Shown here one piece after another: positions 1,778-41,081 of a DNA stretch of 41,081 bases. The DNA comes from a virus. Below the pieces are notes generated by a model. It ran no database searches. It had not been told where the DNA came from and was given only the letters and a program-made list of their open reading frames with translations. Location: positions 1 through 41,081 of IMG/VR virus record IMGVR_UViG_3300048917_000111; one strand, given 5' to 3'. The position numbers and the translations under genes were made by a program. Every line of letters starts with the position of its first letter. The first letter of the stretch is position 1.

Positions 1778-3027
1778 TTGTCCTCCTTCTGGTTCGGGTA
1801 GTAGTCGAGCGGGTCGCCCGAGATAACGTACCGGGTCCGCTGCTCGATCTCACTCGAGCCATGCATCAGGTCGGTGACCGTCAGGTCCTTGTAGTTGCAC
1901 ATGAAGCCGGAGCACGCATGCAGGTTACGCTCGACGCAGTCGGGGTCGTCCCACTTGTATGTTAGCAGGCGGCGAGCCGAAGTTACAAACGACTTCCGCT
2001 GACGCTCAGCCTGCTCCGGCGTGAAGGTCATCTTGTCGCGGCGGAACAGGTCGTCGTACTCGCGGTTCTTCAGCTCCACGATGAACGACTCAATGTAGGC
2101 ACGCTCCTTGGCATCCTCGACCGCCAGCAGGTCCTTGCCGTTGATGACGGTCATGAACCCCTGGTCGATGAGCCACTCACGGTACACAGGGTACGTCGTG
2201 CCAGACGGCTTCAGGACGCGGCTCTGGATGCCCTTCTGGGTCAGCGTGGGCGTCTTGATGGAGCCGGTCTTGCAGTAGTCGTAGATGAAGCCCTTCGGCT
2301 TCGGCAGCGGGCGTCCACGGTATCGCAGCGCCTTGTATGCCGGTGATGTGGCCACTGCCCAGAGGTACGAGTAGTGCTGGAAGGCCAGCTCACGGTAACG
2401 CCACTCCGGCAGGGTTGCGTGAGTCTTGTGGTCACCGAGCCAGACGTCACCGTTCTTGTCGATCCAGATGATGTCGATGCGGCCTCGGTACAGGACCTTC
2501 CCGCCGAACATGGGACGCTCGACGGTGAGCTCCACTGCCAGCGGAGTCAGCCGCTCCTTGCGCTTGACCTCGTAGTACCACTCGTAGCTCAGGACGATGT
2601 GGTAGCACTCACGAGCCAAGACCTCGACCTCTTCCTCGAACTGAGTCAGGCGTGCCTTCTCCAGAAGCTCCTGGTGCTTCGCACGCCAGTCTCCTCCCTT
2701 GCCTCGCTCCTCGAGCAGGGCATGGACCCAGGTCCCACGTGTGAGAGGCTTCTTCTCGAGACGCGGCCGGAGGCCCAGGACGATGCCGTAGTACGTCTCC
2801 CGAGGACACTCGACGAACCCGCTAACCATTGACTGCGTGATGACCAGAGTGCCATCCTTCGTCGTGGGCCAGTAGCCCTTCCCAGGAGCCGGAGGGTTGC
2901 GCTTCTTGCCGGTCGACGGTAGGCGCTTGGCACCCTTAGAATTCTGCAAGTGGCTCCCCTCCCCAGCAGCGGCTGATCGTGACGTCCGCCTTGAGGAAGA
3001 ACTTGCGCGAGAGTTGGTCATCAGCAT
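1774..3027 (-). CDS. Cas4/RecB-like PD-(D/E)XK exonuclease with Cys cluster
   Basis: FVECPRETYY N-terminal Cys. Core GRIDIIWIDKNGDVWLGDHKT. C-terminal CVERNLHACSGFMC. The start is uncertain: ATG 3027 or 3021 overlaps the polymerase 3' end by about 90 nt, and AAGGAGA lies upstream. Confidence 0.75.
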   Translation of the reverse strand: MLMTNSRASSSSRRTSRSAAAGEGSHLQNSKGAKRLPSTGKKRNPPAPGKGYWPTTKDGTLVITQSMVSGFVECPRETYYGIVLGLRPRLEKKPLTRGTWVHALLEERGKGGDWRAKHQELLEKARLTQFEEEVEVLARECYHIVLSYEWYYEVKRKERLTPLAVELTVERPMFGGKVLYRGRIDIIWIDKNGDVWLGDHKTHATLPEWRYRELAFQHYSYLWAVATSPAYKALRYRGRPLPKPKGFIYDYCKTGSIKTPTLTQKGIQSRVLKPSGTTYPVYREWLIDQGFMTVINGKDLLAVEDAKERAYIESFIVELKNREYDDLFRRDKMTFTPEQAERQRKSFVTSARRLLTYKWDDPDCVERNLHACSGFMCNYKDLTVTDLMHGSSEIEQRTRYVISGDPLDYYPNQKEDK

Positions 3028-4837
3028 TCTCCATTGTCTCCTTGACGATTCGGCCGACTCGACGTGCTGTCTTGTATGGGGCAGTCAGACAGACGGAGTC
3101 GTGAACCGTGGTAATTAGTTTAGCGCCCAGGGTAGGGAGGCGCAAGTCCCTACCCAGCCTACCCAGGCTGATCAGCATGAAGTCAGAACCTAGACTCTGC
3201 ACAGGGCTGTTGATGGCCTGACGGAACGCGTTCTCGGCGATCCAGAAGTCCTGATGGTACACCTTCGGCAGATGACGGAACCGGCCGAACTCGTTATGCA
3301 CACCACCGAACTCGAGCGCCTCAGCGCGCTGCTTGCGATACCAGCCTGGCAGGGCACTGAAGGTCGTGAAGTACTCGTCACGGAAGACCTCAGCCTCCTT
3401 GCGAGTGATCTGTACACCGTAGTTCTCGAACAGGTAGTCAGCGAAGTGCTTCGCCATCATGCCGTAGAGGAAGCCAAAGTTCGCACCCTTCGCGAGACTG
3501 CGGTGCTCCTTGGTGATCTCGACTGCTTCACGTACCAGGCGCTTCGCCATGTACATATGGATGTCTTCGTCAGCCTCGAACAGAGTCAGCATGGTCTTCT
3601 CGTTGGCCAGCCGTGCTGCGATACGCAGCTCCAGCTGAGAGAAGTCCACTTCGATCCAGGCGAGGCCGCGCTCCCCGAAGAGGTTACGTGTGGCCTTGTC
3701 TCGAGGGATCTGCTGCGAGTTGAGTCCGAGGTCGTTGTACGGGTCTAGAAGATCCGCCTTGGTCTTCGCCTTCCCGGGAGACGCGCTACTCAGTCGACCA
3801 GTGACCGTGCCTGTCAGCTTGAAGCTGGTGCCGATCCTGCCGTCCTTGGTGCGCTCCTGGATCGGGTTCAGGAACCCGGTGAGCTGCTTGTATAGAGTGC
3901 CACGTTCGGTGAGCAGGCGAGCCGCTGGGTGATCGATCTTGGCGAGGTTCTCTGCTGCGAGGCTCGGGTTGCCCTCAGGCCACGTCTTGGTCGGCTTGCC
4001 TCGAGCGGGGCAGAGCGCTCCTTGGTACTCGAAGAGCCACCACTTGGTCCAATTGGTATTGCCCCAATTGACCTTCGTCTTCTGGAGCCAGTCAGGCCAG
4101 CGCTCCTTGTCGGGCACCGACCGGTCAAGCTGCTGCTCGATGTCAGCGATCTTCTGCTCGACCTCGGCCTGAACCACGGCCACACGCTTCAGGCGTACCG
4201 GCATCCGGTTGGCTTCCATCTGCTGGAGCGGTTCGATAGCCGGGATCATGACCTCACGCATGATACGCACCGGGTCTTCGCCAGGCTTGAGGTTCTTCGC
4301 GACGTGCTTCCGCTGCCACTTGACCAGCTCGCGGGTCCGGTGCACATCCTTACCGTTGTAGATGCTGACGCGCTTCTTCGACGCGGCGAACACCTTCCGG
4401 TCGATGGACATGTCATCCTCGAACCGACCGAACTCGTCGGCATAGCCTGCCACGTTGTCATCAGCCCAGTCCTCGTAGCCCAGCAGGCGGACGACAGTGT
4501 CCTTGAGGCCTGAGGGCTGGTTCTCGTTGATGAGGTGAGCCATGAACATGCTGTCCCACCAGACGTTCAGCTTGACACCGTAGGCGCACAGCCAGCGTCG
4601 CTCGAACGGCGAGTTGTGGGCGATGAGGTTACGCAGTCGTAGTCCTCGCAGCTCCTCGAGATCCCGAGGCCACCAGACCATTACGTCGTCCCGGTCCATG
4701 TGGCCGAACCCCACACACAGGATGCGTCCCTTGCCGACGAACAGAGACGTGGTCTCGATGTCCACTACGACAGGTGCCTTCGACTGTGCGAGGAAGCGCT
4801 TGACCTCGGAGAGGCGGTCGCTGATGAGTAGCTGCAT
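2936..4837 (-). CDS. Family A DNA polymerase (Pol I-like) with 3'-5' exonuclease domain
   Basis: Exo I VVVDIETTSL. Motif A LELRIAARLANE. Motif B SLAKGANFGFLYGM. Motif C TTVHDS. 633 aa. Confidence 0.92.
   Translation of the reverse strand: MQLLISDRLSEVKRFLAQSKAPVVVDIETTSLFVGKGRILCVGFGHMDRDDVMVWWPRDLEELRGLRLRNLIAHNSPFERRWLCAYGVKLNVWWDSMFMAHLINENQPSGLKDTVVRLLGYEDWADDNVAGYADEFGRFEDDMSIDRKVFAASKKRVSIYNGKDVHRTRELVKWQRKHVAKNLKPGEDPVRIMREVMIPAIEPLQQMEANRMPVRLKRVAVVQAEVEQKIADIEQQLDRSVPDKERWPDWLQKTKVNWGNTNWTKWWLFEYQGALCPARGKPTKTWPEGNPSLAAENLAKIDHPAARLLTERGTLYKQLTGFLNPIQERTKDGRIGTSFKLTGTVTGRLSSASPGKAKTKADLLDPYNDLGLNSQQIPRDKATRNLFGERGLAWIEVDFSQLELRIAARLANEKTMLTLFEADEDIHMYMAKRLVREAVEITKEHRSLAKGANFGFLYGMMAKHFADYLFENYGVQITRKEAEVFRDEYFTTFSALPGWYRKQRAEALEFGGVHNEFGRFRHLPKVYHQDFWIAENAFRQAINSPVQSLGSDFMLISLGRLGRDLRLPTLGAKLITTVHDSVCLTAPYKTARRVGRIVKETMENADDQLSRKFFLKADVTISRCWGGEPLAEF
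3117..3145 (-). promoter_or_regulatory. Promoter P-int inside the polymerase CDS: TTGCGC-N17-TAAACT
   Basis: Reverse complement reads TTGCGC ctccctaccctgggcgc TAAACT, the same architecture as the other family members. It lies about 90 nt upstream of the exonuclease start. Confidence 0.55.
3130..3170 (-). other. Two adjacent hairpins inside the polymerase CDS; the first carries the P-int -35 element in its loop
   Basis: GGGTAGGGA (3130-3138) pairs with TCCCTACCC (3147-3155), 9 bp. CAGCCT (3155-3160) pairs with AGGCTG (3165-3170), 6 bp. Confidence 0.6.
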
Positions 4838-5045
4838 TGGTGGCTCCTAGATGAAAGGAGCTCGTTCCACAGAGAGCTAGACTGTCCGGCCGTATCCATC
4901 CGCTTAGGGACCAGCTTAGCTGAGCCACTACTCCTCAGCACCGGAAGATGTTCAGTTATGTACTCCGCCAGAGGCCTCCGTCGTGAGGCTCGCCGTCCAA
5001 GCTGGTGGTGGAGCAGTCCCCGGTAATTGTGAGGGGACGAGGGTC

Positions 5046-5065
5046 GGGAGGCTTTTCAGCCTCCC
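5046..5065 (-). terminator. Stem-loop terminator candidate downstream of the tRNA-like element
   Basis: GGGAGGC-ttttca-GCCTCCC, 7-bp GC-rich stem. No U-tract (I-shaped, common in Actinobacteria). Confidence 0.5.
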
Positions 5066-5068
5066 TCG

Positions 5069-5159
5069 TGGGTGGACAGGATTCGAACCTGTGTCTCGTA
5101 GATGCCCCAGGAGCACAACCTAAACATCTACGCGCTCGACCAACTGAGCTACTCACCCC
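5069..5159 (-). tRNA. Non-canonical tRNA-like element (tRNA-His-like anticodon loop on an elongated anticodon arm)
   Basis: Reverse complement: G-GGGTGAG-TA-GCTC-AGTTGGTC-GAGC-G-[CGTAGATG-TT-TAGG-TTGTGCT-CCTG-GGG-CATCTACG]-AGAC-ACAGG-TTCGAAT-CCTGT-CCACCC-A. D-arm and T-arm are canonical. The anticodon arm is 36 nt instead of 17. The acceptor stem has one mismatch and is one nt short. Confidence 0.5.
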
Positions 5160-5209
5160 ATGGAGAGGACCTGTCAGCTAGGGGGAAGTGCTGACAGGTC
5201 CCCTGGTGG

Positions 5210-5623
5210 TCACGCCGAGCGAGTCGGGCGGCGACGAGCGGTCGCGGGCTTCGCGGCCGGTGCCTTCGCCGGAGCCTTCTTCGCCGGAGCGGCCTTGGCT
5301 GCCGGAGCCTTCTTCGGGGCAGGCTTCGCGGCCTCCTCCTTGACCGGCTTCTCGATCTCCCAGCCGGAGGGGAGCTCGTCGACGTTCGCGATGGCGCGGT
5401 CGACGAGTCCGTCGAAGTCGCCCGCCTCGATGGCCTCGACGAACGCCTGGAAGGCGATCGCACGCATGGCCTTGTAACGGCTCTTCTGGATGTCGATGCC
5501 GGTCGCCTCGAGGACTCGGTCGATGCCCTCGCCGACGATCTGCTTGTTCGTGGGCTCGACGGTCTCTTCGACGGTCTCGTCGATGGTCTCGTCGAGGACG
5601 GCTGCCTTGGTGGAACGTGCCAT
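5210..5623 (-). CDS. Hypothetical protein with histone H1/HupB-like Ala/Lys/Pro-rich basic C-terminal tail (putative DNA-binding)
   Basis: RBS AAGGAGA plus ATG. Tail is KPAPKKAPAAKAAPAKKAPAKAPAAKPATARRRP. It has its own promoter upstream. Confidence 0.7.
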   Translation of the reverse strand: MARSTKAAVLDETIDETVEETVEPTNKQIVGEGIDRVLEATGIDIQKSRYKAMRAIAFQAFVEAIEAGDFDGLVDRAIANVDELPSGWEIEKPVKEEAAKPAPKKAPAAKAAPAKKAPAKAPAAKPATARRRPTRSA

Positions 5624-5677
5624 GATAATTCTCCTTGATGGCTGTGGGTTGCGGCTGCTGCCGCGCTGATAAGTACT

Positions 5678-5706
5678 ACTATGCCTGACGTGTGCCGTAT
5701 CCGCAA
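5678..5706 (-). promoter_or_regulatory. Promoter: TTGCGG-N17-CATAGT
   Basis: Reverse complement reads TTGCGG atacggcacacgtcagg CATAGT, about 50 nt upstream of ATG 5623. Confidence 0.55.
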
Positions 5707-5743
5707 GTCCAAACCAGAAAATTTCCTGGGTAGATCATTTGCC

Positions 5744-7111
5744 CTAGCGCCTGTAGCTCTCGATCCTGCGCACGACCTTCCTCAAATGAGCGTGGTCCTC
5801 CTGCAGGGTCTCCCACACGTCCTCGTCTACGGTGCCCCTGCCACACAGGAACCACACTGTCGGGGACGCCGGAGACAGCTTGATGCGGTCGCTGGCCTGC
5901 TTGAATGTGACGTAGTTGAAGTCGCTGGTGTACCAGATGAGGTCGTTGGCCACCGAGATGTCCACGGCCATCGCCACTGTCCTCGGCTGGACCAGCAGCA
6001 CACGCACATCCCGGTCGCCCTGGAACGCCTCGATGACGTGGTCCTTATTGCGTGTGGCCCCAGTGATGACGAGATGCCCGTATCCCTTGCGCTTGAGGTA
6101 GCGGCCGACAAGCTTAACCTCCCAGAGATGGGTGCACGCCACGATGATCTTGCCGTCGCAGCGCCGGAGCACGTTGCCCAGAGCACCCAGCCGTGCACGC
6201 GCGGCCTCCGGTACGGTGAACGAGCGACCCTCGTCGTCCTTGACCCAGCCTGCCACGAGCATCCGCATACGCAGGAGCCTGGTCAGCGGGTTCAGGCCAA
6301 TGACATCGGCTCCATCGATCTCGATGACACCCTTCTTCAGGAGATCCTTGTGCCACTGCATGACCTGAGCTGGCACCGGGTAGGTGATCTTGCGGATGGG
6401 CACCGGGTCGCCAGGGCCAACCATCGTGATGACATCCTTCTGGATGTAGGCGTTCAGCTCGGCCTGGTGGATGGGCTTGATCAGCTCGGGGAAGCCCTTG
6501 ACCGTGGTCCACTCGCCGAAGTGCTCCCGGAAGTCTCGAGCCGAAGGCCAGTGCTGCCGGATGCCGGGGTTCGCGAACGTCCACTGGCCGTACACAGCAT
6601 CGATCTGGTCGGGGTTCGTGACAGGCGTCCCGGTCATGAGGAGCCGGTAGTGCCACTTCGCAGCCAGCGGACGAATGTTCCGGCCCTGGACACTGCTCGG
6701 TGTCTTGATGATGTGGCTCTCGTCCAGAAGCATCATGCCCATGCCTCCGGCATGCTTGGACATCTTGTCCAGGAACGGCTTCAGCCTCTTCCAGGGCGAC
6801 TTGCCGAACTGATCGTAGTTCACGAACAGAAGTGCAGTGCCATGGAAGAGGCTGGTGGTGGGATACTCGTTGCCTGCTGTGAGGGGGAAGAACCGGTAGG
6901 TGATGCCGAGCCACTTAGCAGCTTCGGTCCTCCAAGTGGCTTCAGCGATCTTGGGACCGACCACGACAGCCACTTTCGGCTTGACGTGCTCAATCCACTT
7001 CAGGGCGACCGCTGTCTTGCCTGAGCGGGGTTCCGCCCAGAGCGCTGCGTAGTGCCTGCCTGGCTCTGTCAGGATCCGTAAGGCGACTAGCTGGGAGTCC
7101 CTGAGCTTCAT
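5744..7111 (-). CDS. SNF2-family helicase/ATPase
   Basis: Walker A EPRSGKTAVAL. DExH MLLDESHIIK. Motif III LLMTGTPVTN. C-terminal helicase domain present. I chose the start at ATG 7111 (MKLRDSQ) because it overlaps the upstream TGA (ATGA). Confidence 0.88.
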   Translation of the reverse strand: MKLRDSQLVALRILTEPGRHYAALWAEPRSGKTAVALKWIEHVKPKVAVVVGPKIAEATWRTEAAKWLGITYRFFPLTAGNEYPTTSLFHGTALLFVNYDQFGKSPWKRLKPFLDKMSKHAGGMGMMLLDESHIIKTPSSVQGRNIRPLAAKWHYRLLMTGTPVTNPDQIDAVYGQWTFANPGIRQHWPSARDFREHFGEWTTVKGFPELIKPIHQAELNAYIQKDVITMVGPGDPVPIRKITYPVPAQVMQWHKDLLKKGVIEIDGADVIGLNPLTRLLRMRMLVAGWVKDDEGRSFTVPEAARARLGALGNVLRRCDGKIIVACTHLWEVKLVGRYLKRKGYGHLVITGATRNKDHVIEAFQGDRDVRVLLVQPRTVAMAVDISVANDLIWYTSDFNYVTFKQASDRIKLSPASPTVWFLCGRGTVDEDVWETLQEDHAHLRKVVRRIESYRR

Positions 7112-7368
7112 GCGAAGAGCGCGTTCAGGGCACTGGTGAAGCGCGAGAGCGCTCCTGCAGCGCGCTGGATGGCGTCCCACATGGGATTCATGACCGTGAC
7201 AGGAGCGGTCACTGCCTGGTGGCGCTCCTCGTCGCGAGCCTGCTGCCGTGCTGCGTAGTGCTCCTCCAGGGAGACACCGGCCAGGCTGGCCAACGCGCGG
7301 TGATAGCTCAGCTCGATGCCAATGTTGAGACGGTCCTCCATGAGCTGGAGTTCGCGGTCGATGTCCAT
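7108..7368 (-). CDS. Hypothetical protein (86 aa)
   Basis: ORF with coding-like composition, tightly packed and start/stop coupled to its neighbours. Confidence 0.6.
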   Translation of the reverse strand: MDIDRELQLMEDRLNIGIELSYHRALASLAGVSLEEHYAARQQARDEERHQAVTAPVTVMNPMWDAIQRAAGALSRFTSALNALFA

Positions 7369-7667
7369 TAGATGTCCTCCTTGAGTGTGGCCACGGTACG
7401 GAAGTAGGCCATGTTCTTGATGAAGTCGTGGTGCTGCTGAATCTCGAAGTCCCAGTGGAAGCCTTCGGGAGGGTCGGGGAGCAGACGCATGAGGCGCTCC
7501 TGCTCGGCGTTCAGGTGCTCGACCAGAAGCTTTACATGGGCACTCGGTCCGATGTCTGCCAGGTCCTGCTCACTGATCTCTAGCTGGTGGCCCTTCAGTC
7601 TCGGAGTGTATCCTTCAAGACCAAGCTTGTTCACTGGGATTTCCCACCAGCGTCGCTCCCCGACCAT
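7368..7667 (-). CDS. Hypothetical protein (99 aa)
   Basis: ORF packed between neighbouring genes on the same strand. Confidence 0.6.
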   Translation of the reverse strand: MVGERRWWEIPVNKLGLEGYTPRLKGHQLEISEQDLADIGPSAHVKLLVEHLNAEQERLMRLLPDPPEGFHWDFEIQQHHDFIKNMAYFRTVATLKEDI

Positions 7668-7668
7668 C

Positions 7669-8844
7669 TTAGCCCTCCCAGCCCTGGTCTCGCAAGACCT
7701 GTGCGAGGTTCGGCTTGAAGTAGTTCGGACCCTTCTTCACGCGGCCTTCGAAGATGCCGTCGGGGTCGTTGGGTCCGGCGATGATGGGCTGACCATCCGC
7801 ACCAAGCTTGGACATGTTGCTGGCCTGGACCTCGATGTACCCAGGACCAGCCTGCATGCCCGCGCGGTTGAGAGCGCCGAACACGACATACAGGATGTCG
7901 ATGAGGGCATCGTAGATCTCCACGACGTTCGGCACGTGGGACTGGATCAGGTGTCCGATCTTGCCATCCTGCGTGAAGATGACACGAGCACCCAGTGCAG
8001 GGATCAGCTCGTCGATGAACTCCTCACGGATGAGCTCAATAACGACAGGCACGTCCGACTGAGGGATGGCCTGGGGAGAACCAGCGCTGGGAATCTGCAT
8101 CGCGTTGTGGAACGCCTTGTTCTGGTCCTGCATCATGTTGACTCCACGCAGGTACTCGTGGAAGAGCGGGTCCATCATGGGGTTCTCGGTGAAGAAGGTC
8201 CTCAGGTCGTCCAGGAGCTTCTCTCCGATCTGCCGTGCCCCGGTGCTATCGAACTCACCAGCGGCTCCGAGGTTCTCCCAGCAGGTGCTCGCAGCACCGA
8301 GCGCCTCGAACACGATGCGGCTCAGCTCGCCCACATACTCGTCCTCGTCGAAGAAGGTGCTCATGGACATGGTCTCTGCGATCTGAGCAGCGGCCTTCTC
8401 CTCCTGGTCCAACTCTGCTGCTGCCTGGGTCCCGGCCACATACAACTGGACCGCCTCCCACTGCGACTGAGTGAAGCGCTGGCCTCCCAGGTCGACGTGA
8501 TAGCCATCTCCGAAGGGGTTGACCGAGTGGTTCATGTGAAGCTCGGGCACCAGCGGGTCGGCCGTCTGGATGAGTCGGGCCAGCAGGTAGGCACGGTCGT
8601 CAGTTCCACCGACGGTCTCGTACTCCTCCGTGAACTCAGACTCAGTCAGGACGATGAAGCCATCCGGCGTCTTGACGATGTAGTTGCCCGGGATGGCGGT
8701 CTCCGAGCCGATGACGATCCAGGAGCCATCGTTGACGGCAGGCACAACGGTGCCGTTGCACCAGCGGGCGATGTCACGGATGTTCTCGAGGTCGAAGCGC
8801 TGAGCCTCGACAGTCCGGTACTTGGTGTGGTAGGTAGTCATCAT
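7669..8844 (-). CDS. Protein with C-terminal MazG-type all-alpha NTP pyrophosphohydrolase domain and about 260-aa N-terminal region of unknown function
   Basis: C-terminal motifs FHNAMQIP, LIREEFIDEL, EIYDALIDILYVVFG, VQASNMSKLG and KKGPNYFKPNL match the phage MazG-like family pattern. RBS GAGGAG. Confidence 0.75.
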   Translation of the reverse strand: MMTTYHTKYRTVEAQRFDLENIRDIARWCNGTVVPAVNDGSWIVIGSETAIPGNYIVKTPDGFIVLTESEFTEEYETVGGTDDRAYLLARLIQTADPLVPELHMNHSVNPFGDGYHVDLGGQRFTQSQWEAVQLYVAGTQAAAELDQEEKAAAQIAETMSMSTFFDEDEYVGELSRIVFEALGAASTCWENLGAAGEFDSTGARQIGEKLLDDLRTFFTENPMMDPLFHEYLRGVNMMQDQNKAFHNAMQIPSAGSPQAIPQSDVPVVIELIREEFIDELIPALGARVIFTQDGKIGHLIQSHVPNVVEIYDALIDILYVVFGALNRAGMQAGPGYIEVQASNMSKLGADGQPIIAGPNDPDGIFEGRVKKGPNYFKPNLAQVLRDQGWEG

Positions 8845-8851
8845 GTTCTCC

Positions 8852-8995
8852 TCAGTAGAGTCTCATGCCTCGGTGATCGAGGCTCTTGTTCAGCATGACA
8901 TGGAATAGCCATGCCTGCCACTTGTGGCGGAAGCGGATCGGTGTGATGAAGTGCCCCTCCTCGTACAGATTGACCGTAGGGTCGATGGGCTTCAT
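8852..8995 (-). CDS. Hypothetical small protein (47 aa)
   Basis: ATG 8995 overlaps the upstream TGA (ATGA). RBS GGAAGGGGA. Sequence is MKPIDPTVNLYEEGHFITPIRFRHKWQAWLFHVMLNKSLDHRGMRLY. Confidence 0.5.
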   Translation of the reverse strand: MKPIDPTVNLYEEGHFITPIRFRHKWQAWLFHVMLNKSLDHRGMRLY

Positions 8996-9537
8996 TGGGG
9001 ATTCCCCTTCCGTTCGCGGCGGACGAACCGCTGCTCTTTCTCGAATGCTTCGGTGATGCGGTCGATCTCGTCCCAATTGACCAGCCGTGGGTCCTTGGGA
9101 TCTTCACAGGAGAATGGACTGAGGACCACACTCAGTGCCTCTGCGAAGCCACGTGCCTCCTCCTTCAGGTAGGCCTTCTGCTTCGGGTCTTCCTCATCCT
9201 CGGCCATGCTGGCCAGCTCGTTGTACGCGTTGTACAGCTTGCGTGTGATCTGCGCACCGACGACGTCGCCAGCCTTGAGGACACTGTTGAAGCGTACCCT
9301 CTTGTCCGCGATGTGCTGGAACGCGCTGGTCGTGAGAAAGTGAGCGATCTCGTCGCTCGTCTCATGACCAGCATCCAGGGCTGCCTCGATGCCTTCAGCG
9401 ATCACGTCGATGGTGGTAACCTTACCATCGCGCATGGCCTCACGGTCATCGATTACGGCGAAGATGATGCCCTGGCCGGAGAAGACTGTCTCCGTCGTCG
9501 GTGCTGTCTGTGGTGGCTTGCGCTTCCGCGTTGCCAT
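8992..9537 (-). CDS. Hypothetical protein (181 aa from ATG 9537)
   Basis: Strong RBS AAGGAGA before MATRKRKPP. The frame stays open upstream to GTG 9723, so an N-terminal extension covering 9538..9723 cannot be excluded. Confidence 0.6.
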   Translation of the reverse strand: MATRKRKPPQTAPTTETVFSGQGIIFAVIDDREAMRDGKVTTIDVIAEGIEAALDAGHETSDEIAHFLTTSAFQHIADKRVRFNSVLKAGDVVGAQITRKLYNAYNELASMAEDEEDPKQKAYLKEEARGFAEALSVVLSPFSCEDPKDPRLVNWDEIDRITEAFEKEQRFVRRERKGNPQ

Positions 9538-9700
9538 GTTTGTCTCCTTGTAGTTCAGGATGGCTTGCCCCTCGTCGCGATAGCGAAGGAGCTCAGCCGC
9601 TGCCTCATTGCGTGTGGCCCTGCTGACTCGTCGGTTCTTCGAGAGAGCGTAGAGCACTCCGACCTTGAACAGATGGTCGAACGCTGGCTGCTGCCGTACG

Positions 9701-10288
9701 TCAGCTCTCGTGGTGTGCTTCACGGAGCCAGTCCAGCAGGTCGGAATCGCTGGTGACCAGACGCTCCATGAGGTCACGCGTGGAGACCGTGCGTCCAGGG
9801 CTGTCGTGAGCCACCAGCTTCTGGGAGAACTCGCCGTGCTGCTCGAAGTTCGAGACCTCCATGACGCTGATGGACTTGAACAGGTTGTAATCCTGAGCGC
9901 GGTTCATGGCCAGCAGGAAGCTCGCCCAGTTCCGGTACGCCTGGTTGACCGGGACGATGCGTCCCTTGCCCTCGTACAGCTCGTCGTCGATACCCTGAGC
10001 GGCCTTCCACTCGTGCACCTTGATAACCAGATGCACGTCCGGCGCGGAGAACACTGTGCGGATGCGGGCGTCGTTCCACTCGTGCTCAGGCATGGCCAGA
10101 CGGTAGACTGTGTGGGTCAGCCAGTCGATGCGGTCGAACGTACCGACCAGGGTCTCGTCCTGAACCTCGCGCTGCTTGGCACGGTAGTTCGTGTCGGTCA
10201 TGTTGTACTGAGGCTGGTGGTGCCAGTCCAGTGCAGTGGCGGACGTGCTCTTTCCGGTCTTGTCCGGCCCTTCGAATGCGATGAGCAT
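9701..10288 (-). CDS. P-loop nucleotide kinase, thymidylate/dNMP-kinase-like
   Basis: N-terminal MLIAFEGPDKTGKST matches the Tmk-type P-loop context (IxFEGxDxxGKST). 195 aa. Confidence 0.65.
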   Translation of the reverse strand: MLIAFEGPDKTGKSTSATALDWHHQPQYNMTDTNYRAKQREVQDETLVGTFDRIDWLTHTVYRLAMPEHEWNDARIRTVFSAPDVHLVIKVHEWKAAQGIDDELYEGKGRIVPVNQAYRNWASFLLAMNRAQDYNLFKSISVMEVSNFEQHGEFSQKLVAHDSPGRTVSTRDLMERLVTSDSDLLDWLREAHHES

Positions 10289-10289
10289 C

Positions 10290-11225
10290 TTAGATCTCCT
10301 TGATCAGCTCGGTCAGTGGGTACTTGACCGGCACACGACCGGTCGCCTTGTAGAACCTGCTCCAGTTTACCCCGATACGCATGACTCCGCCAAGCGGATT
10401 GCGCATACTGACTCGGAGGTACTGGTGCATGTCCGGGTAGAACTCCTCGGTCGTCTCCAGATGTGGCCTGCCGACCTCGTCCGTCACGTCCAGGGGGATG
10501 GTGGTCTCGATCGTACCCTGCTGATCGTAGGCCACACCAGGCAGGGTGAACGTCAGCTGTCCACGCTCCATGGTGTCGAGGAACATCGCGAGGTCTTCCC
10601 CGTGATACTGGTACGGCTTGGGCATGTCTCTCATCTGGAACCGGTCCACGTCGAAGAACATGACGCACGCAGGGAAGGAGCCGCTCGTGAGCGTGACCCC
10701 CACCGAAACGTCCGTGTCGCCGCTGAAGAGAGCGTTACGTGCTGCCCCGTAGCTGGCCTCAGGGTAGATGGTGAATACCTCGTCAGCCATCCTGCAGGCG
10801 ACGGCGAGCGACCTCAGCAGCAGCGTCGGCTCCTCGATGCCCGACACACGTGCCGAGTACCGTCGAGCGTGTGTCTTGCCATTGTCCTTCTCGACTGCCT
10901 CCAGGAGGCTGACGTGCCAGATGTCGTCGTCGAGCACCACGATCTTCTCGTAGCCGCGCTCCTCAGCGTCTCTCAGGCAGGCCATGCGCGCCGGTCCGAT
11001 GCCTGGTGTGGCCTCCTCCACGATCTCCGCCCACGGATACGCCTGGGTGTATGCGACGACCTCTTCCGGCCGTACAACGATGTGCACCTTCACCTGAACG
11101 GACCAGGGTGCGTCCCAGAGCATGTTCAGGAGCGGAGCGCTGCCTGCCCTCTTGTGACTGGGGATGTAGATCGGGTAGAGCCACGACACCTTGGAGCGTC
11201 GCAGCAGGCGGATGTGTTCATTCAT
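10290..11225 (-). CDS. GT-A fold glycosyltransferase-like protein
   Basis: PIYIPSHKRAG (GT2-like first strand/loop), EKIVVLDDD (DxD motif), later HGEDLAMF. I set the start at ATG 11225 (MNEHIRLL). The upstream part of the tracked ORF has poor composition and is occupied by a separate small ORF. Confidence 0.6.
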   Translation of the reverse strand: MNEHIRLLRRSKVSWLYPIYIPSHKRAGSAPLLNMLWDAPWSVQVKVHIVVRPEEVVAYTQAYPWAEIVEEATPGIGPARMACLRDAEERGYEKIVVLDDDIWHVSLLEAVEKDNGKTHARRYSARVSGIEEPTLLLRSLAVACRMADEVFTIYPEASYGAARNALFSGDTDVSVGVTLTSGSFPACVMFFDVDRFQMRDMPKPYQYHGEDLAMFLDTMERGQLTFTLPGVAYDQQGTIETTIPLDVTDEVGRPHLETTEEFYPDMHQYLRVSMRNPLGGVMRIGVNWSRFYKATGRVPVKYPLTELIKEI

Positions 11226-11397
11226 GGTATTGCAGTCCGTCCCATTCGAAGTCGTGCGGGTATCCGGCCACCACCGAGTAGTGACCCAGCAGCGGCGTCC
11301 CGTGGACAGCGATCTTGAAGCATCGGGCAGTACCGTCTTCAAGCTCCATCTGATGTCCATGGTACGGTCCACCGTGGAGGGTCACTACTCGTGACAT
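11218..11397 (-). CDS. Hypothetical small protein (59 aa), not in ORF track
   Basis: Hand translation: MSRVVTLHGGPYHGHQMELEDGTARCFKIAVHGTPLLGHYSVVAGYPHDFEWDGLQYHE. Its end overlaps the glycosyltransferase-like start (ATGAATGA). Confidence 0.5.
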   Translation of the reverse strand: MSRVVTLHGGPYHGHQMELEDGTARCFKIAVHGTPLLGHYSVVAGYPHDFEWDGLQYHE

Positions 11398-11403
11398 GAT
11401 GAC

Positions 11404-11562
11404 CTACTTGTCTTCAGGCTTCTTCAGGATAGCCTGTACTGCTCGCCAGAGCCCTACCAGGATGGCGAATGCGAGGATGAGGATGCCTGCGATGCCCAGG
11501 ACGGCGAAGACACCGAACAGCACCCAGGTCAGGAGAGTCCAGAGAAGGTCCCAGGGGTTCAT
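11404..11562 (-). CDS. Small hydrophobic membrane protein (52 aa), not in ORF track
   Basis: Hand translation: MNPWDLLWTLLTWVLFGVFAVLGIAGILILAFAILVGLWRAVQAILKKPEDK. ATG overlaps the TGA of the ThyA-like gene (ATGA). Confidence 0.55.
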   Translation of the reverse strand: MNPWDLLWTLLTWVLFGVFAVLGIAGILILAFAILVGLWRAVQAILKKPEDK

Positions 11563-12359
11563 GCGAGGTGATCCCTGCCGTCGGAACCCATGATGACATT
11601 GCTGGATTCGTCGTGCCTCTTGATGCCCATGCGCTCCGAGAAGCTCCAGACGCGTCGAGCGATGCGTTCCTCGGTGTCTGCTGCCGTGTCGGCCAGGAGC
11701 TGGAAGTGGCGCGGGTAGACGTGGAGGTTGGCCACCTGGAAGCTGATGTCACCGTGCTTGATGCCAGGGTACACCATCTCCAACGAGCCGATGAGCCACG
11801 ACTGCAGGTAGTCCCACATGGAGTAGTCGGCCCGGTATCCCCAAACCGCGTCCATGGACCTCATCTGAGCGATGATGTGCAGTCGCATGTCGGTGTCGAC
11901 CATGACGTTGAGCGCGTTCGTGCAGATGAAGTCCTTGCGACCCATGTAGGTCGCCAGCGTGTGGATGTCGCGGTCGCTGATGATGGCCACTGCGTGACGG
12001 CTCCCGAGACCCTCGTTGATGAGCGTATGCACGATGCGGTCAGCCAGGGTGGGAGGAGGCGGAAGCAGCTCGTCGCGGCCGAACAGGATGTGGCCGTAGG
12101 CGCTGTTCACCTTCCCATCGATGCCAGCACACTGCTGGAACGCCTGAGGCACCGGACCCTCCATGTCGGCCAGGCTGTTCGAGCCGTTGGCGAACCAGTC
12201 CAGCTCCCGCCGAACCCAGTCCTCGTTCCGCTTGCCGATCATCGAGTTCTGGTCAGCCAGCCAGTCCACCGAGTACAGGACCTTGTTCCCGGTCCGCTCG
12301 TCGATGGGAGCGTCGTGCAGTGCCAGCACCACATCGTCGATCCGGTTCTTCTTCAGCAT
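11559..12359 (-). CDS. Thymidylate-synthase-fold enzyme, candidate deoxypyrimidylate (dCMP/dUMP) hydroxymethylase
   Basis: ThyA-family landmarks RRELDWFANGSN, NSAYGH, SRHAVAII, Cys in FICTNAL, QMRSMDAVWGYRAD, NLHVYPRH. It is strongly diverged from canonical ThyA. Start at ATG 12359 with RBS AAGGAGG. Confidence 0.7.
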   Translation of the reverse strand: MLKKNRIDDVVLALHDAPIDERTGNKVLYSVDWLADQNSMIGKRNEDWVRRELDWFANGSNSLADMEGPVPQAFQQCAGIDGKVNSAYGHILFGRDELLPPPPTLADRIVHTLINEGLGSRHAVAIISDRDIHTLATYMGRKDFICTNALNVMVDTDMRLHIIAQMRSMDAVWGYRADYSMWDYLQSWLIGSLEMVYPGIKHGDISFQVANLHVYPRHFQLLADTAADTEERIARRVWSFSERMGIKRHDESSNVIMGSDGRDHLA

Positions 12360-12407: not shown

Positions 12408-12436
12408 AGTATAGCGCATGTAGATCGTTCCCACAA
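12408..12436 (-). promoter_or_regulatory. Promoter: TTGTGG-N17-TATACT (modification/replication operon)
   Basis: Reverse complement reads TTGTGG gaacgatctacatgcgc TATACT, directly downstream of hairpin 12444..12480. Confidence 0.5.
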
Positions 12437-12443
12437 GGGTGGG

Positions 12444-12480
12444 TCTCCCCGGCCTGGTGCGCTAGGCCAGGCCGGGGAGA
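12444..12480 (-). terminator. Strong 14-bp stem-loop terminator
   Basis: TCTCCCCGGCCTGG (12444-12457) pairs with CCAGGCCGGGGAGA (12467-12480). Confidence 0.7.
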
Positions 12481-12487
12481 GAACGGG

Positions 12488-12685
12488 TCAGGGGAGCTCG
12501 ATGTAGGAGCCCTCGCCAGCCACTCCGGAGGCGTTCGGCTCGACGTAGAGCGTCTGGCCTCCGAAGTCCTGGTAGGAGCCGTCCGCCTCGATCCAGTCGA
12601 AGGTGGTACCGTCGACCTGGATGAAGGAAGGCGTCTCGGCGTCGAGAAGGTGGGAGTAGACCGGGGTTCCGAAGTTGATGTCCAT
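12488..12685 (-). CDS. Hypothetical protein (65 aa), leaderless
   Basis: ATG 12685 lies exactly 6 nt downstream of the -10 TAAAAT, with no SD. Confidence 0.65.
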   Translation of the reverse strand: MDINFGTPVYSHLLDAETPSFIQVDGTTFDWIEADGSYQDFGGQTLYVEPNASGVAGEGSYIELP

Positions 12686-12691
12686 ACTAGA

Positions 12692-12720
12692 ATTTTAGCA
12701 TGGAATCCGGATCAGCGCAA
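12692..12720 (-). promoter_or_regulatory. Promoter: TTGCGC-N17-TAAAAT (leaderless)
   Basis: Reverse complement reads TTGCGC tgatccggattccatgc TAAAAT tctagt ATG. The -35 overlaps the last codons of the upstream ORF. Confidence 0.65.
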
Positions 12721-12879: not shown

Positions 12880-13142
12880 CCCTGTGCGTCCTGGAGGTAC
12901 TGCTCAATCGCGTCCATGTCCAGGTCCTCGAGGTCGCTGATAGCGTATTCGAGGTTCCCGATGGCCTCTTCTGCCGCGATGCCGCGCTCGCTGCCCTGGA
13001 GGCTCTCGGGCATGTAGTCGAAGTACTCCTGCTCCTCGTCGCGGATGCTCTCGATGGCTTCCTTGATCTCGTCGCGCAGGACAGTGATCTCGCTCAGGCG
13101 GTCGACGATCTCGGCGATCTGCTTGCGTCGTGCATTGTTCAT
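12876..13142 (-). CDS. Hypothetical helical protein (88 aa), member of a three-gene paralog set (MNxxRRK...)
   Basis: Start at ATG 13142 after ACAGGAGCACACC. Sequence begins MNNARRKQIAEIVDRLSEI...DEEQEYFDYMPESLQGSERG. Confidence 0.65.
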   Translation of the reverse strand: MNNARRKQIAEIVDRLSEITVLRDEIKEAIESIRDEEQEYFDYMPESLQGSERGIAAEEAIGNLEYAISDLEDLDMDAIEQYLQDAQG

Positions 13143-13164
13143 GGTGTGCTCCTGTGGGATAGGT

Positions 13165-13186
13165 GGGGAGGCCCGGAGGCCTCCCC
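13165..13186 (-). terminator. Stem-loop (9 bp) between genes
   Basis: GGGGAGGCC-cgga-GGCCTCCCC. Confidence 0.5.
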
Positions 13187-13192
13187 TGGTGG

Positions 13193-13414
13193 TCACTCGA
13201 AGAAGATGTTGGTCCGGCCGTTACGAGTGGCGAAGGTGATGATGCTGTCGACCTCGTCCTCCTCGCGGCTCTGGTAGAGACCCAGCTCGCTGACGTTGCA
13301 GTCCTCCATGACAGCGCGCTGTGCGTTCCGCAGCAGGGTGACCGCGTTGGTGGCGTCGACACCATCCTGCTCAACGAGCTGGGCGACCAGTGCTTCTGTG
13401 ATGCTGAGGTTCAT
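13193..13414 (-). CDS. Hypothetical protein (73 aa)
   Basis: RBS AAGGAGCACATC plus ATG, with a promoter upstream. Confidence 0.65.
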   Translation of the reverse strand: MNLSITEALVAQLVEQDGVDATNAVTLLRNAQRAVMEDCNVSELGLYQSREEDEVDSIITFATRNGRTNIFFE

Positions 13415-13493: not shown

Positions 13494-13655
13494 CTACCGG
13501 TGGCACTTCCGGCAGAGAATCTGCGGGATGGGTGCGGCCTGGTAGGCACGGCTCCAGCGGCTGGTGTCGAGGCCACACTGCGTCGTGGTGCCGTCGTTGG
13601 TTAGGATGTGCTGGAGGCTGGGACGACCGCTAGCGGTCCGGGCGATGATGTACAA
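13494..13655 (-). CDS. Hypothetical small Cys-containing protein (53 aa, TTG start), not in ORF track as such
   Basis: TCAGGGAGCACACC-TTG matches the conserved SD module of neighbouring genes. Sequence is MYIIARTASGRPSLQHILTNDGTTTQCGLDTSRWSRAYQAAPIPQILCRKCHR. Confidence 0.45.
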   Translation of the reverse strand: MYIIARTASGRPSLQHILTNDGTTTQCGLDTSRWSRAYQAAPIPQILCRKCHR

Positions 13656-13676
13656 GGTGTGCTCCCTGAGGGTTGT

Positions 13677-13698
13677 GGAGGAGGCCGAAGCCTCCTCC
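13677..13698 (-). terminator. Stem-loop (9 bp)
   Basis: GGAGGAGGC-cgaa-GCCTCCTCC, directly after the stop at 13706. Confidence 0.5.
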
Positions 13699-14346: not shown

Positions 14347-15070
14347 GACCCTGGGTCATGGACTTCCCGCCAGTGTTCGCCTTCTGGCCTGCTGCGAACC
14401 CCTGCGATGCCGCTCCGTCGCGGCCGGTAGCCGTGCGAGACCGTCCACGTCCCTTGGCGATGCCGTCGAAGTACGACTGCACTGCCTGCGAGCGGTTGAC
14501 CAGGACCAGCTCGGTCCCAGTGGATGTGGCCTCGGCCTCCTCGATGACGCTCAGGCGGCTGTCGTGGATACGGCGACCAGCACCCGACCCGAAGCCGTGG
14601 AAGAAGCTCCGGCGTGCCTTCTCCTGGTCGTAGGTGCTCTGCCAGGCGTAGGATGCCTTGGTACCCTTCCACCACTCCTTGACAGCGACCATGCCCTGGA
14701 CCTTGAGGCTGTTGATGAGCGTCATGGCGTTGTCGACGTCCGACTGGTAGCCGATGATGTAGAGGCTGAAGACCTTACCGGTGCCTCCGGAGTACTGGAG
14801 GTTCTGCAGAGCTCCCAGGCCACGGCAGACGGCTACGCCGAGGTTGATGAGCTCGCCCCGGTATGCTCCGGTGAAGTCCATACGGACCTGCACGATCTTG
14901 TCGCTGGCCTGGCCATTTCCTGCCTTGTGAGCGTCCAGCATGGCCTGCTCGATGCCGTGCTTGACCATCAGCTTCTCAGCAGCTGCCATGAGCGCCTCAG
15001 CCTCAGCGGCATTGGTCGACTCTGCCTTGGCAAGCAGCTTGTTGATGAGGTCGATCTTCTTCTCGTTCAT
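14330..15070 (-). CDS. DUF2786-type phage protein
   Basis: N-terminal KIDLINKLLAKAESTNAAEAEALMAAAEKLMVKHGI is the DUF2786 signature. RBS ACAGGAGCACACC. Confidence 0.75.
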   Translation of the reverse strand: MNEKKIDLINKLLAKAESTNAAEAEALMAAAEKLMVKHGIEQAMLDAHKAGNGQASDKIVQVRMDFTGAYRGELINLGVAVCRGLGALQNLQYSGGTGKVFSLYIIGYQSDVDNAMTLINSLKVQGMVAVKEWWKGTKASYAWQSTYDQEKARRSFFHGFGSGAGRRIHDSRLSVIEEAEATSTGTELVLVNRSQAVQSYFDGIAKGRGRSRTATGRDGAASQGFAAGQKANTGGKSMTQGRGIGA

Positions 15071-15109
15071 GGTGTGCTCCTGTCGAGTGGTGGTTGGTGT
15101 GTTGTGATT

Positions 15110-40889: not shown

Positions 40890-41081
40890 CAGCTTGAGAG
40901 ACTGCGAATCCACGCTACTACTTCCTGAGCCTTAGGATCGTGGCTGACGAACGCCTGTCCGCCAGCCTGCCTGAACTTCTTGATGTTGTACTTCTGTGCG
41001 GCTGTAGGTTGCTCTCGTGCTGTCTTCTTCGCCTCGATGAGGAAGAAGTAGCCGTGTGCACAACCAAGAACGTCGGGGGTC
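40889..41081 (-). CDS. VRR-NUC nuclease gene, C-terminal part (continues from 228..1 across the circular junction)
   Basis: Same frame as 1..228 through the repeat. Ends ...GGQAFVSHDPKAQEVVAWIRSLSS with TGA at 40891..40889. Confidence 0.7.
   Translation of the reverse strand, partial: TPDVLGCAHGYFFLIEAKKTAREQPTAAQKYNIKKFRQAGGQAFVSHDPKAQEVVAWIRSLSS
40955..41081. repeat. Right copy of exact 127-bp terminal direct repeat
   Basis: Identical to 1..127. Unique genome length is therefore 40,954 bp. Confidence 0.95.

Follow-up and report, generated by a model that had tools for sequence, protein, structure and literature searches.

The window analysed here is the whole of IMG/VR virus record IMGVR_UViG_3300048917_000111, a contig of 41,081 nucleotides (nt) that originates from a JGI metagenome. 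Its first and last 127 nt (1-127 and 40955-41081) are identical, indicating a circular assembly and a complete phage genome of ~40,954 bp. With its 41 kb, this siphovirus belongs to a lineage of 62% G+C. Among sequenced phages it stands closest to the Microbacterium phages of cluster EA (Eleri, Ilzat, YuuY and others), with which it shares a nucleotide identity of only ~72-78%, and that in short stretches only. The plus strand codes for terminase, portal, major head, tape-measure and lysis proteins, and a leftward replication module comprises a primase/helicase, a Sak4-like protein, an exonuclease, a family A polymerase and an SNF2 helicase. Next to the SNF2 gene lies a minus-strand operon (7669 to 12359) that, judged from the proteins it encodes, probably specifies a pre-replicative pathway of cytosine hypermodification, following T-even logic with partly non-orthologous components and yielding glycosylated 5-hydroxymethylcytosine (5hmC). 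The genes on which this reading turns are as follows (lengths in amino acids, aa).

11559..12359, minus strand: homologue of the T4/T6 gp42-type deoxycytidylate (dCMP) hydroxymethylase, 266 aa (PDB phmmer, tblastn and residue comparisons)
10290..11225, minus strand: TAGT/JGT-like GT-A glycosyltransferase (GT), 311 aa (PF20691)
9701..10288, minus strand: P-loop NTPase of a small orphan family, 195 aa (phrog_4121, 8.6e-67)
8992..9723, minus strand: conserved 243-aa protein with a GTG start and an 'IEAALDAGH...' core (phrog_4086)
7669..8844, minus strand: 391-aa MazG fusion protein, with a C-terminal MazG/HisE domain at ~aa 235-390 (nt ~7672..8142)
2936..4837, minus strand: family A DNA polymerase (NCBIfam DNA polymerase I, 1.5e-59)

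All of the open reading frames named in the original prediction were found on the minus strand, with the motifs PIYIPSHKRAG, VVLDDD and IAFEGPDKTGKST as quoted, and the NCBIfam match at 2936..4837 bears out the claim that the phage has a family A polymerase of its own. One frame required correction: 8992..9537 is a truncated form of 8992..9723, the extent that the JGI gene call also gives.

A gp42-type enzyme and a TAGT-family glycosyltransferase

The product of 11559..12359 had been described as a thymidylate synthase (TS)-fold protein too diverged to be an ordinary ThyA, and database comparisons uphold that description. A phmmer search of the PDB returned T4 gp42 entries alone (1b49/1b5e; E 3.3e-25 to 4e-23) and no ordinary ThyA at E<=1; the Pfam TS profile matched at 3e-5, below its threshold, and phrog_160 at 6e-35. 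By tblastn against 50,697 phage records, the protein finds its counterparts in 191 Microbacterium phages at 60-80% identity and in ~780 Straboviridae gp42 genes at 28-33%.

Three positions have been reported to inform on the reaction catalysed by such enzymes (Lee et al., NAR 2026, PMC13326640): N177D specifies dCMP as the substrate, an acidic residue at L143 correlates with hydroxymethyl as opposed to methyl transfer through water access, and D169N is the mark of flavin-dependent 5-hydroxy-dCMP synthases. We inspected these positions in alignments with E. coli ThyA, whose numbering is used here, T6 gp42, RB69 gp48 and three EA phages. The catalytic Cys146 (C146 in E. coli, C148 in T4) and the general acid/base Glu52 (E58 in E. 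coli, E60 in T4) are invariant. At E. coli L143 the window protein has Asp143 ('KDFIC', against 'SDFMC' in T6 and 'ALAPC' in E. coli), and at E. coli N177 (T4 D179) it has Asp178 ('YRADY', against 'FRNDY' in T6 and 'LPFNI' in E. coli). At E. coli D169 it retains Asp170 ('RSMDA'), as do T6 ('RSNDV') and Eleri, whereas RB69 gp48 reads 'RSQNC'; the appearance of the RB69 Asn169 in this very column serves as a positive control and validates the test. The same diagnostic residues recur in three phages of different genera, Eleri, Zayuliv and Pajaza. On sequence grounds, then, the protein belongs to the gp42 clade of dCMP hydroxymethylases, and the combination of homology and diagnostic residues predicts that it makes 5-hydroxymethyl-dCMP, as opposed to dTMP, 5-hydroxymethyl-dUMP or 5-hydroxy-dCMP. 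Its reading as an ordinary ThyA, which neither residues nor clade fit, was rejected.

These residues also bear on an alternative that had been offered from the start, a 5-hydroxymethyluracil (5hmU) pathway in which the P-loop protein would act as a 5-HMUDK-like DNA kinase and prime further substitution. P-loop proteins of uncertain specificity reportedly act on 5hmU in DNA in other phages. The alternative found no support here: at the position that specifies the substrate the protein has the Asp of dCMP enzymes, which led us to reject a dUMP hydroxymethylase; the clade is that of gp42; and the window genome contains no dUMP-type TS homologue, dCMP/dCTP deaminase or dUTPase. Since the TS-like enzyme is dCMP-specific by its residues, the context argues against a 5-HMUDK role, and we consider a 5hmU pathway hardly credible.

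A second pathway with the same general gene logic is that for arabinosyl-5-hydroxycytosine, with its ether-linked sugar, in phages RB69 and DLP3 (PMC13326640), in which a TS homologue bearing N177D and an acidic residue at L143 is likewise combined with a kinase and DNA glycosyltransferases. Asp169, typical of hydroxymethylases, is kept by the enzymes of the window, Eleri and T6, whereas RB69 gp48 carries the Asn169 of the flavin-dependent hydroxylase type, and no genes for nucleoside diphosphate (NDP)-arabinose are present. The retained Asp169 led us to reject a 5-hydroxy-dCMP synthase, and a pathway of the RB69/DLP3 type is extremely improbable for this operon.

The protein encoded by 10290..11225, taken from its motifs to be a GT-A glycosyltransferase, agrees with that description in its family assignment. 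It matches PF20691 above threshold (1.6e-11; 45.0 bits against a cut-off of 27.5), with aa 17-236 aligned to profile positions 1-198 of 205, and falls into phrog_4519 (1e-149), with a further match (3.8e-15) to phrog_842, the beta-glucosyl-HMC-alpha-glucosyltransferase of T2/T6. The T6 enzyme is itself a PF20691 protein whose gene directly follows gene 42, and BLASTP aligns it with the window protein at E 6e-6 (29% identity over 112 aa). The window motifs IPSHKR, VVLDDD and HGEDLAMF align with IPSYQR, MIDDT and CEDMYAF of T6, the aligned patterns being IPSxxR, DDD and GEDxxxFL. The JGT-like phage DNA glycosyltransferases described by Pyle et al. (2023; bioRxiv 10.1101/2023.12.21.572611) carry R...DDD...ED(Y/F) motifs, from which the window enzyme departs by a Leu in place of the Tyr/Phe of the third motif. 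A sequence search of the PDB gave chance matches only. Family membership leads us to predict that this TAGT-family enzyme transfers a sugar to 5hmC in DNA, and taken together with the gp42 clade it predicts a cytosine-derived modified base; the absence of NDP-sugar synthesis genes from the window genome implies that the sugar donor comes from the host. Hydroxymethylation followed by glycosylation in the T-even style, as first proposed, is thus supported by direct homology of both proteins, beyond resemblance of motifs.

Among relatives, the slot occupied by this gene is the variable part of the cassette, and may hold one TAGT, two TAGTs in tandem (Zayuliv, QuadZero) or a divergent, weakly matching TAGT (Pajaza, Juanyo). 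Sets of glycosyltransferases also vary from one T-even phage to another (T2, T4 and T6).

The P-loop, 243-aa and MazG proteins

The designation of 9701..10288 as a Tmk- or deoxynucleoside monophosphate (dNMP) kinase-like protein holds in part. An invariant FEGPDxxGKST P-loop and a DRIDW..H..YR motif are present, but placement in the Tmk or gp1 families did not follow. In phmmer and profile searches of the PDB, similarity was limited to the P-loop. The thymidylate kinase profile PF02223 gave no Pfam match with the window protein and weak matches with 3 of 30 homologues (best 0.0056); an exhaustive HMMER profile search of 1.84 billion representatives recovered just 44 clusters and no bridge to Tmk or any other named kinase family. 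Profile alignment by hhalign gave a probability of 0.5% with T6 gp1 and of 70% with the RB69 gp45 'thymidylate kinase', in both cases over the P-loop only. Structural comparison, one of the checks originally suggested, was similarly divided. For an AlphaFold2 (AF2) model of good quality (predicted local distance difference test, pLDDT, 88), the best Foldseek matches were thymidylate kinase (TMPK)-like, including YorR, with probabilities of 0.9-1.0 but template-modelling (TM) scores of only 0.39-0.50; against the PDB there was no match at E<=1e-3, and KaiC/RecA scored a TM of ~0.2. A search of BFVD returned the protein's own family plus weak TMPK-like matches. Our best guess is that the protein is a dNMP kinase or hydroxymethyl-dNMP kinase.

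RB69 gp45 (4048-4596 of the locus examined), which lies in the arabosyl-5-hydroxycytosine cluster, has the unusual 'GPDxxGKTT' Walker A motif also seen in the window family.

The 243-aa protein occurs in 191 of 191 Microbacterium phage records, its gene always comes immediately after that of the P-loop protein, and the 23-nt overlap between the two genes has the identical length in Eleri and Zayuliv. It is the most conserved member of the cassette, with 60-73% identity against ~50% for the P-loop protein. Searches of Pfam, NCBIfam and the PDB gave no match, a profile search added no remote relatives, and the AF2 model (pLDDT 62) is not usable; the protein is possibly a partner of the kinase or a replication factor. 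Some homologues (for example P0130, P0136, P0194, P0208 and P0236) carry a Cys/His-rich insert of ~25 residues, MTKSGFCAHPSN..H..C....C.C.CH, which resembles a zinc ribbon and lies in a basic N-terminal linker.

Two contigs from other phages show the pair in different company. An unrelated phage on contig L006 (Logan ERR2737789, 33.8 kb; 4663-8552) has a P-loop gene of the same family, followed by a gene for a 128-aa protein with an 'IEAALD.AGH' core (hhalign 59%) that is probably a homologue of the 243-aa protein. The neighbours of this P-loop gene encode SNF2, PolA, a ThyA-clade enzyme that keeps Leu143 and carries N177D, a signature like that of dCMP methylases, and a PF08761 dCTPase/dUTPase, which matches gp56 genes. 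This phage is in its own right a candidate for 5-methylcytosine DNA. On contig L010/L011 (Logan SRR22184587, 29.6 kb, 41% G+C), PolA and SNF2 are 54% and 62% identical to those of the window and the P-loop gene adjoins a clear homologue of the 243-aa gene (37% identity); no TS-like, GT or MazG gene was found in the 20 kb retrieved. The latter arrangement implies that the pair is not a dedicated component of hydroxymethylcytosine synthesis. As far as these gene neighbourhoods indicate, the P-loop protein and its companion form a conserved unit of the replication module that has twice been joined to dCMP-modifying enzymes and a deoxynucleoside triphosphate (dNTP) pyrophosphatase. This twofold association would fit a broad-specificity dNMP kinase recruited for a modified nucleotide, without proving it.

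A MazG domain had been predicted at the C terminus of 7669..8844, and Pfam, PHROG and PDB matches all locate one there: PF01503 scores 23.4 bits against a cut-off of 21.3, the MazG/PRA-PH match spans aa 243-342, phrog_4159 matches at 3.6e-102, and PDB entry 3nl9 and the DR2231 MazG-like protein match at 1.3e-8 and 6e-4. The N-terminal part is a variable add-on, the entire protein measuring 147 aa in Eleri and 291 aa in Zayuliv, and the long 391-aa fusion is matched at >=80% coverage in only 16 records. A tblastn search with the window protein gave no Straboviridae record, and thus no sequence match to gp56. By analogy with gp56, the domain is predicted to be the enzyme that clears dCTP. The N-terminal region matches PHROGs that carry no functional assignment (phrog_419/1810 at aa 1-80, phrog_9132/20553 at aa 159-223); in Arthrobacter, Gordonia and other Microbacterium phages its domains are also encoded by genes of their own.

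The same set of genes might serve ordinary nucleotide supply, with a TS and a thymidylate kinase boosting dTTP, a house-cleaning MazG and an unrelated glycosyltransferase moron. This is how databases would have it: in GenBank, the genes of the relatives are labelled thymidylate synthase, glycosyltransferase, thymidylate kinase or AAA-ATPase, hypothetical and MazG, and PHROGs files the glycosyltransferase family under 'moron/auxiliary'; the kinase pair on L011, with no TS-like gene beside it, is also compatible with such a role. The exchange of the dUMP-specifying Asn177, and of Leu143, for Asp speaks against it, as do the restriction of PDB matches to gp42, the subthreshold Pfam TS score and the identity of the glycosyltransferase as a TAGT, and we judge the nucleotide-supply explanation very unlikely.

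Proposed pathway and restriction-site avoidance

T-even phages use the dCTPase gp56, the dCMP hydroxymethylase gp42, the dNMP kinase gp1 and alpha- and beta-glucosyltransferases, and T2 and T6 add the TAGT-family beta-glucosyl-HMC-alpha-glucosyltransferase. The window shares with this system a hydroxymethylase that is a true homologue with identical diagnostic residues and a glycosyltransferase of the same Pfam family as the second-step enzyme of T6, and it has an all-alpha NTP pyrophosphohydrolase, a P-loop candidate kinase and a polymerase of its own. It differs in that its pyrophosphohydrolase is of the MazG/HisE type and its P-loop protein is unlike gp1, which makes both non-orthologous replacements, and in that all of the genes lie in one operon of a 41-kb siphovirus. 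A GT-B alpha- or beta-glucosyltransferase is also missing from the window, and the solitary GT-A TAGT would thus have to act directly on 5hmC.

In the pathway we propose, the gp42-type enzyme would convert dCMP, methylene-tetrahydrofolate and water into 5-hydroxymethyl-dCMP (hm-dCMP), a step for which homology and active-site residues argue strongly. The MazG pyrophosphohydrolase would turn dCTP into dCMP, both lowering the canonical pool and feeding the first step. The orphan P-loop protein, possibly with the 243-aa protein, might phosphorylate hm-dCMP, after which a host NDP kinase would make hm-dCTP. The family A polymerase, which must accept the modified dNTP, would incorporate it, and the TAGT, assigned by family membership, would glycosylate the 5-hydroxymethyl group in DNA with a host NDP-sugar as donor. 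The phage would probably gain a means of evading host nucleases, and replacement may be less extensive than in the T-even phages.

Several observations weigh against this proposal. The P-loop protein fits neither the Tmk nor the gp1 family and its role as a nucleotide kinase is not demonstrable; the kinase pair occurs on L010/L011 apart from the other genes in the 20 kb retrieved; and MazG genes are common in phages without a modification pathway. The co-occurrence of the genes in 191/191/191 records was considered as functional evidence and rejected, because it reflects conservation within a single lineage, not independent association. No experimental work on DNA modification in Microbacterium phages was found in the literature searched.

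A further difficulty comes from the composition of the genome itself. Six-base palindromes are underrepresented in the window (observed/expected ratio, O/E, 0.81), with 6 of 38 testable palindromes strongly avoided against 10 of 2,468 non-palindromes; GCCGGC is absent where 16 are expected, GGCGCC absent where 6 are expected, and AGATCT present 3 times in place of 14. GATC is also low, at 200 observed against 265 expected. In Eleri the ratio is 0.63, with strong avoidance of 9 of 39. For T6, whose DNA contains glucosylated hydroxymethylcytosine, 50 kb of sequence give 0.93 with strong avoidance of 0 of 36, and Appa, which infects the same host but lacks this pathway, gives 0.60 with 21 of 33. 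EA-type genomes are therefore intermediate between T6 and Appa in palindrome avoidance. That avoidance persists, unlike in T6, argues against blanket protection of the T-even kind or complete replacement of cytosine; it suggests that cytosine-containing sites still matter, through incomplete replacement, partial protection or an evolutionarily recent pathway. Such avoidance is unexpected in a genome thought to carry hypermodified cytosines.

One way to accommodate this pattern is that 5hmC is made, but only in part or without glycosylation of DNA, and that the TAGT acts on a virion protein, a cell-wall polymer, a small molecule or only some sites. Besides the intermediate avoidance, it is favoured by the position of most metagenomic GT-A/GT-B matches, which do not lie beside base-modifying enzymes, by the derivation of phage DNA glycosyltransferases from cell-envelope enzymes, and by the window genome, in which functions that degrade host DNA or exclude cytosine-containing DNA are not recognisable. 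Against this stand the above-threshold PF20691 match with homology to a characterised 5hmC-sugar transferase, and the location of the gene, which in every relative follows the hydroxymethylase gene with two small genes in between. We regard partial or unglycosylated 5hmC as unlikely, and glycosylated 5hmC as the probable outcome. More speculatively, and with a good deal of doubt, the glycosylated-5hmC pathway may have been assembled independently of that of the T-even phages, with a TAGT that glycosylates 5hmC directly, perhaps with a sugar other than glucose, a P-loop hm-dCMP kinase of a family not recognised before that depends on an obligatory 243-aa partner, and partial replacement or protection of cytosine, which would explain the continued avoidance of restriction sites.

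Conserved versions of the cassette are found in 191 sequenced Microbacterium phages. With the phages of cluster EA (Elerivirus, Neferthenavirus, Pikminvirus and others) the window shares gene order, gene families and the upstream hairpin, promoter and ribosome-binding site (RBS). Amino acid identities to the window are ~65-74% for the hydroxymethylase, ~52-66% for the glycosyltransferase, ~44-53% for the kinase and ~51-71% for the 243-aa protein. The window version is a divergent metagenomic member, distinguished by its long MazG fusion, by one glycosyltransferase in place of two, and by an interval between promoter and hydroxymethylase gene that lacks a small gene. The paper describing the cluster mentions the thymidylate synthase and MazG genes, and DNA modification does not appear in it. 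Pyle et al. (2023; Table S4) list these Microbacterium phages among those with JGT-like GT-A enzymes and describe the glycosyltransferase hits of cultured phages as 'exclusively ThyS-associated'; their clusters resemble the present one in pairing a GT-A enzyme with R...DDD...ED motifs with a TS homologue. The enzymes in their experiments were TET/5mYOX-associated and thus post-replicative, no Microbacterium-phage enzyme or DNA was assayed, and the kinase, the 243-aa protein and the MazG gene are not discussed. Many phages with solitary TAGTs of undefined function are noted in a paper on T4 (NAR 2026, gkag531). The window cassette thus adds a divergent member to a gene cluster that in silico work had already recognised.

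If the pathway operates as proposed, sugar-decorated 5hmC would be present in ~190 SEA-PHAGES isolates that are easy to obtain and in many metagenomic relatives, in genomes in which cytosine makes up ~31% of bases, and new names would be required for the genes now labelled thymidylate synthase, thymidylate kinase or AAA-ATPase, and hypothetical protein. Pre-replicative cytosine hypermodification has so far been studied mainly in large T4-like myoviruses; a siphovirus that is small and infects a Gram-positive, high-G+C host would offer a tractable system. It would also bring new enzymology, in the form of a solitary TAGT, a candidate (hydroxymethyl-)dNMP kinase family and an orphan partner protein. 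The presence of a hypermodification cassette alongside clear restriction-site avoidance poses a puzzle open to direct test.

Operon structure and surrounding features

The remaining features of the operon and its upstream border are the following.

12444..12480, minus strand: 14-bp G+C-rich hairpin, directly after the stop codon of the upstream 65-aa gene
12408..12436, minus strand: promoter-like site TTGTGG-17-TATACT, seen by eye
11404..11562, minus strand: 52-aa hydrophobic membrane micro-protein (phrog_4198, 4.6e-12)
11218..11397, minus strand: 59-aa conserved small protein (phrog_5300, 1.1e-11)
8852..8995, minus strand: putative 47-aa open reading frame filling the gap between the 243-aa and MazG genes

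Between 12359 and the SNF2 helicase gene at 7180, genes overlap or are separated by gaps of <=8 nt, which leaves no room for internal terminators. A consensus scanner found no minus-strand terminator in this interval and one promoter-like site at chance level, in agreement with the original description of an operon without internal promoter or terminator. The promoter assigned to 12408..12436 fared less evenly: the site is visible by eye and its block is kept in Eleri, but it falls below the threshold of the scanner, which missed it because its -35 element, TTGTGG, matches just 3 of 6 positions. It precedes CCAAGGAGGACAACATG, a strong Shine-Dalgarno region; the arrangement consists of a leader of ~40 nt, the Shine-Dalgarno sequence AAGGAGGA and the ATG at 12359. 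The hairpin at 12444..12480 has a dG of -31.6 kcal/mol (z -4.5), a value equalled by 0 of 200 shuffled sequences, and is not followed by a U-tract. From its stability and position, it is probably a terminator that parts the operon from the upstream early genes. The order of hairpin, promoter and RBS is retained in phage Eleri, with which the conserved sequence reads CCCACC-CTTGTG ... CCAAGGAGGACA(A/G)CATG.

The position of the micro-protein gene after the hydroxymethylase gene is conserved, and Zayuliv annotates a 'membrane protein' there; the 59-aa protein has tblastn matches at the same position in Eleri and Zayuliv. The 47-aa frame has no PHROG or Pfam match and no tblastn match in the related loci, and its open frame is all that supports it.

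Other features lie outside the operon. Upstream of it, only ~5 nt separate the end of a second promoter-like site on the minus strand (~12690..12720, TTGCGC-17-TAAAAT) from the ATG start codon of the 65-aa gene 12488..12685, a proximity that suggests a leaderless or near-leaderless transcript. An element of ~38 nt occurs in three copies, read on the minus strand (13136-13173, 13649-13686 and 15064-15101), each spanning the RBS and start codon of an upstream early gene and containing AGGAGCACACCATGAAC; G+C hairpins precede some copies (for example at 13165-13196), giving the appearance of a repeated translation-initiation/terminator unit. Rfam matches a tRNA at 5069..5158 on the minus strand (42.6 bits), where ARAGORN reported none. 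Its acceptor, D and T arms are canonical, but in the anticodon arm the stem CGUAG/CUACG encloses ~26 nt where a loop of 7 is the norm, which points to either an intron-like insertion or a degenerate tRNA; a single tRNA-Ala is common in cluster EA phages.

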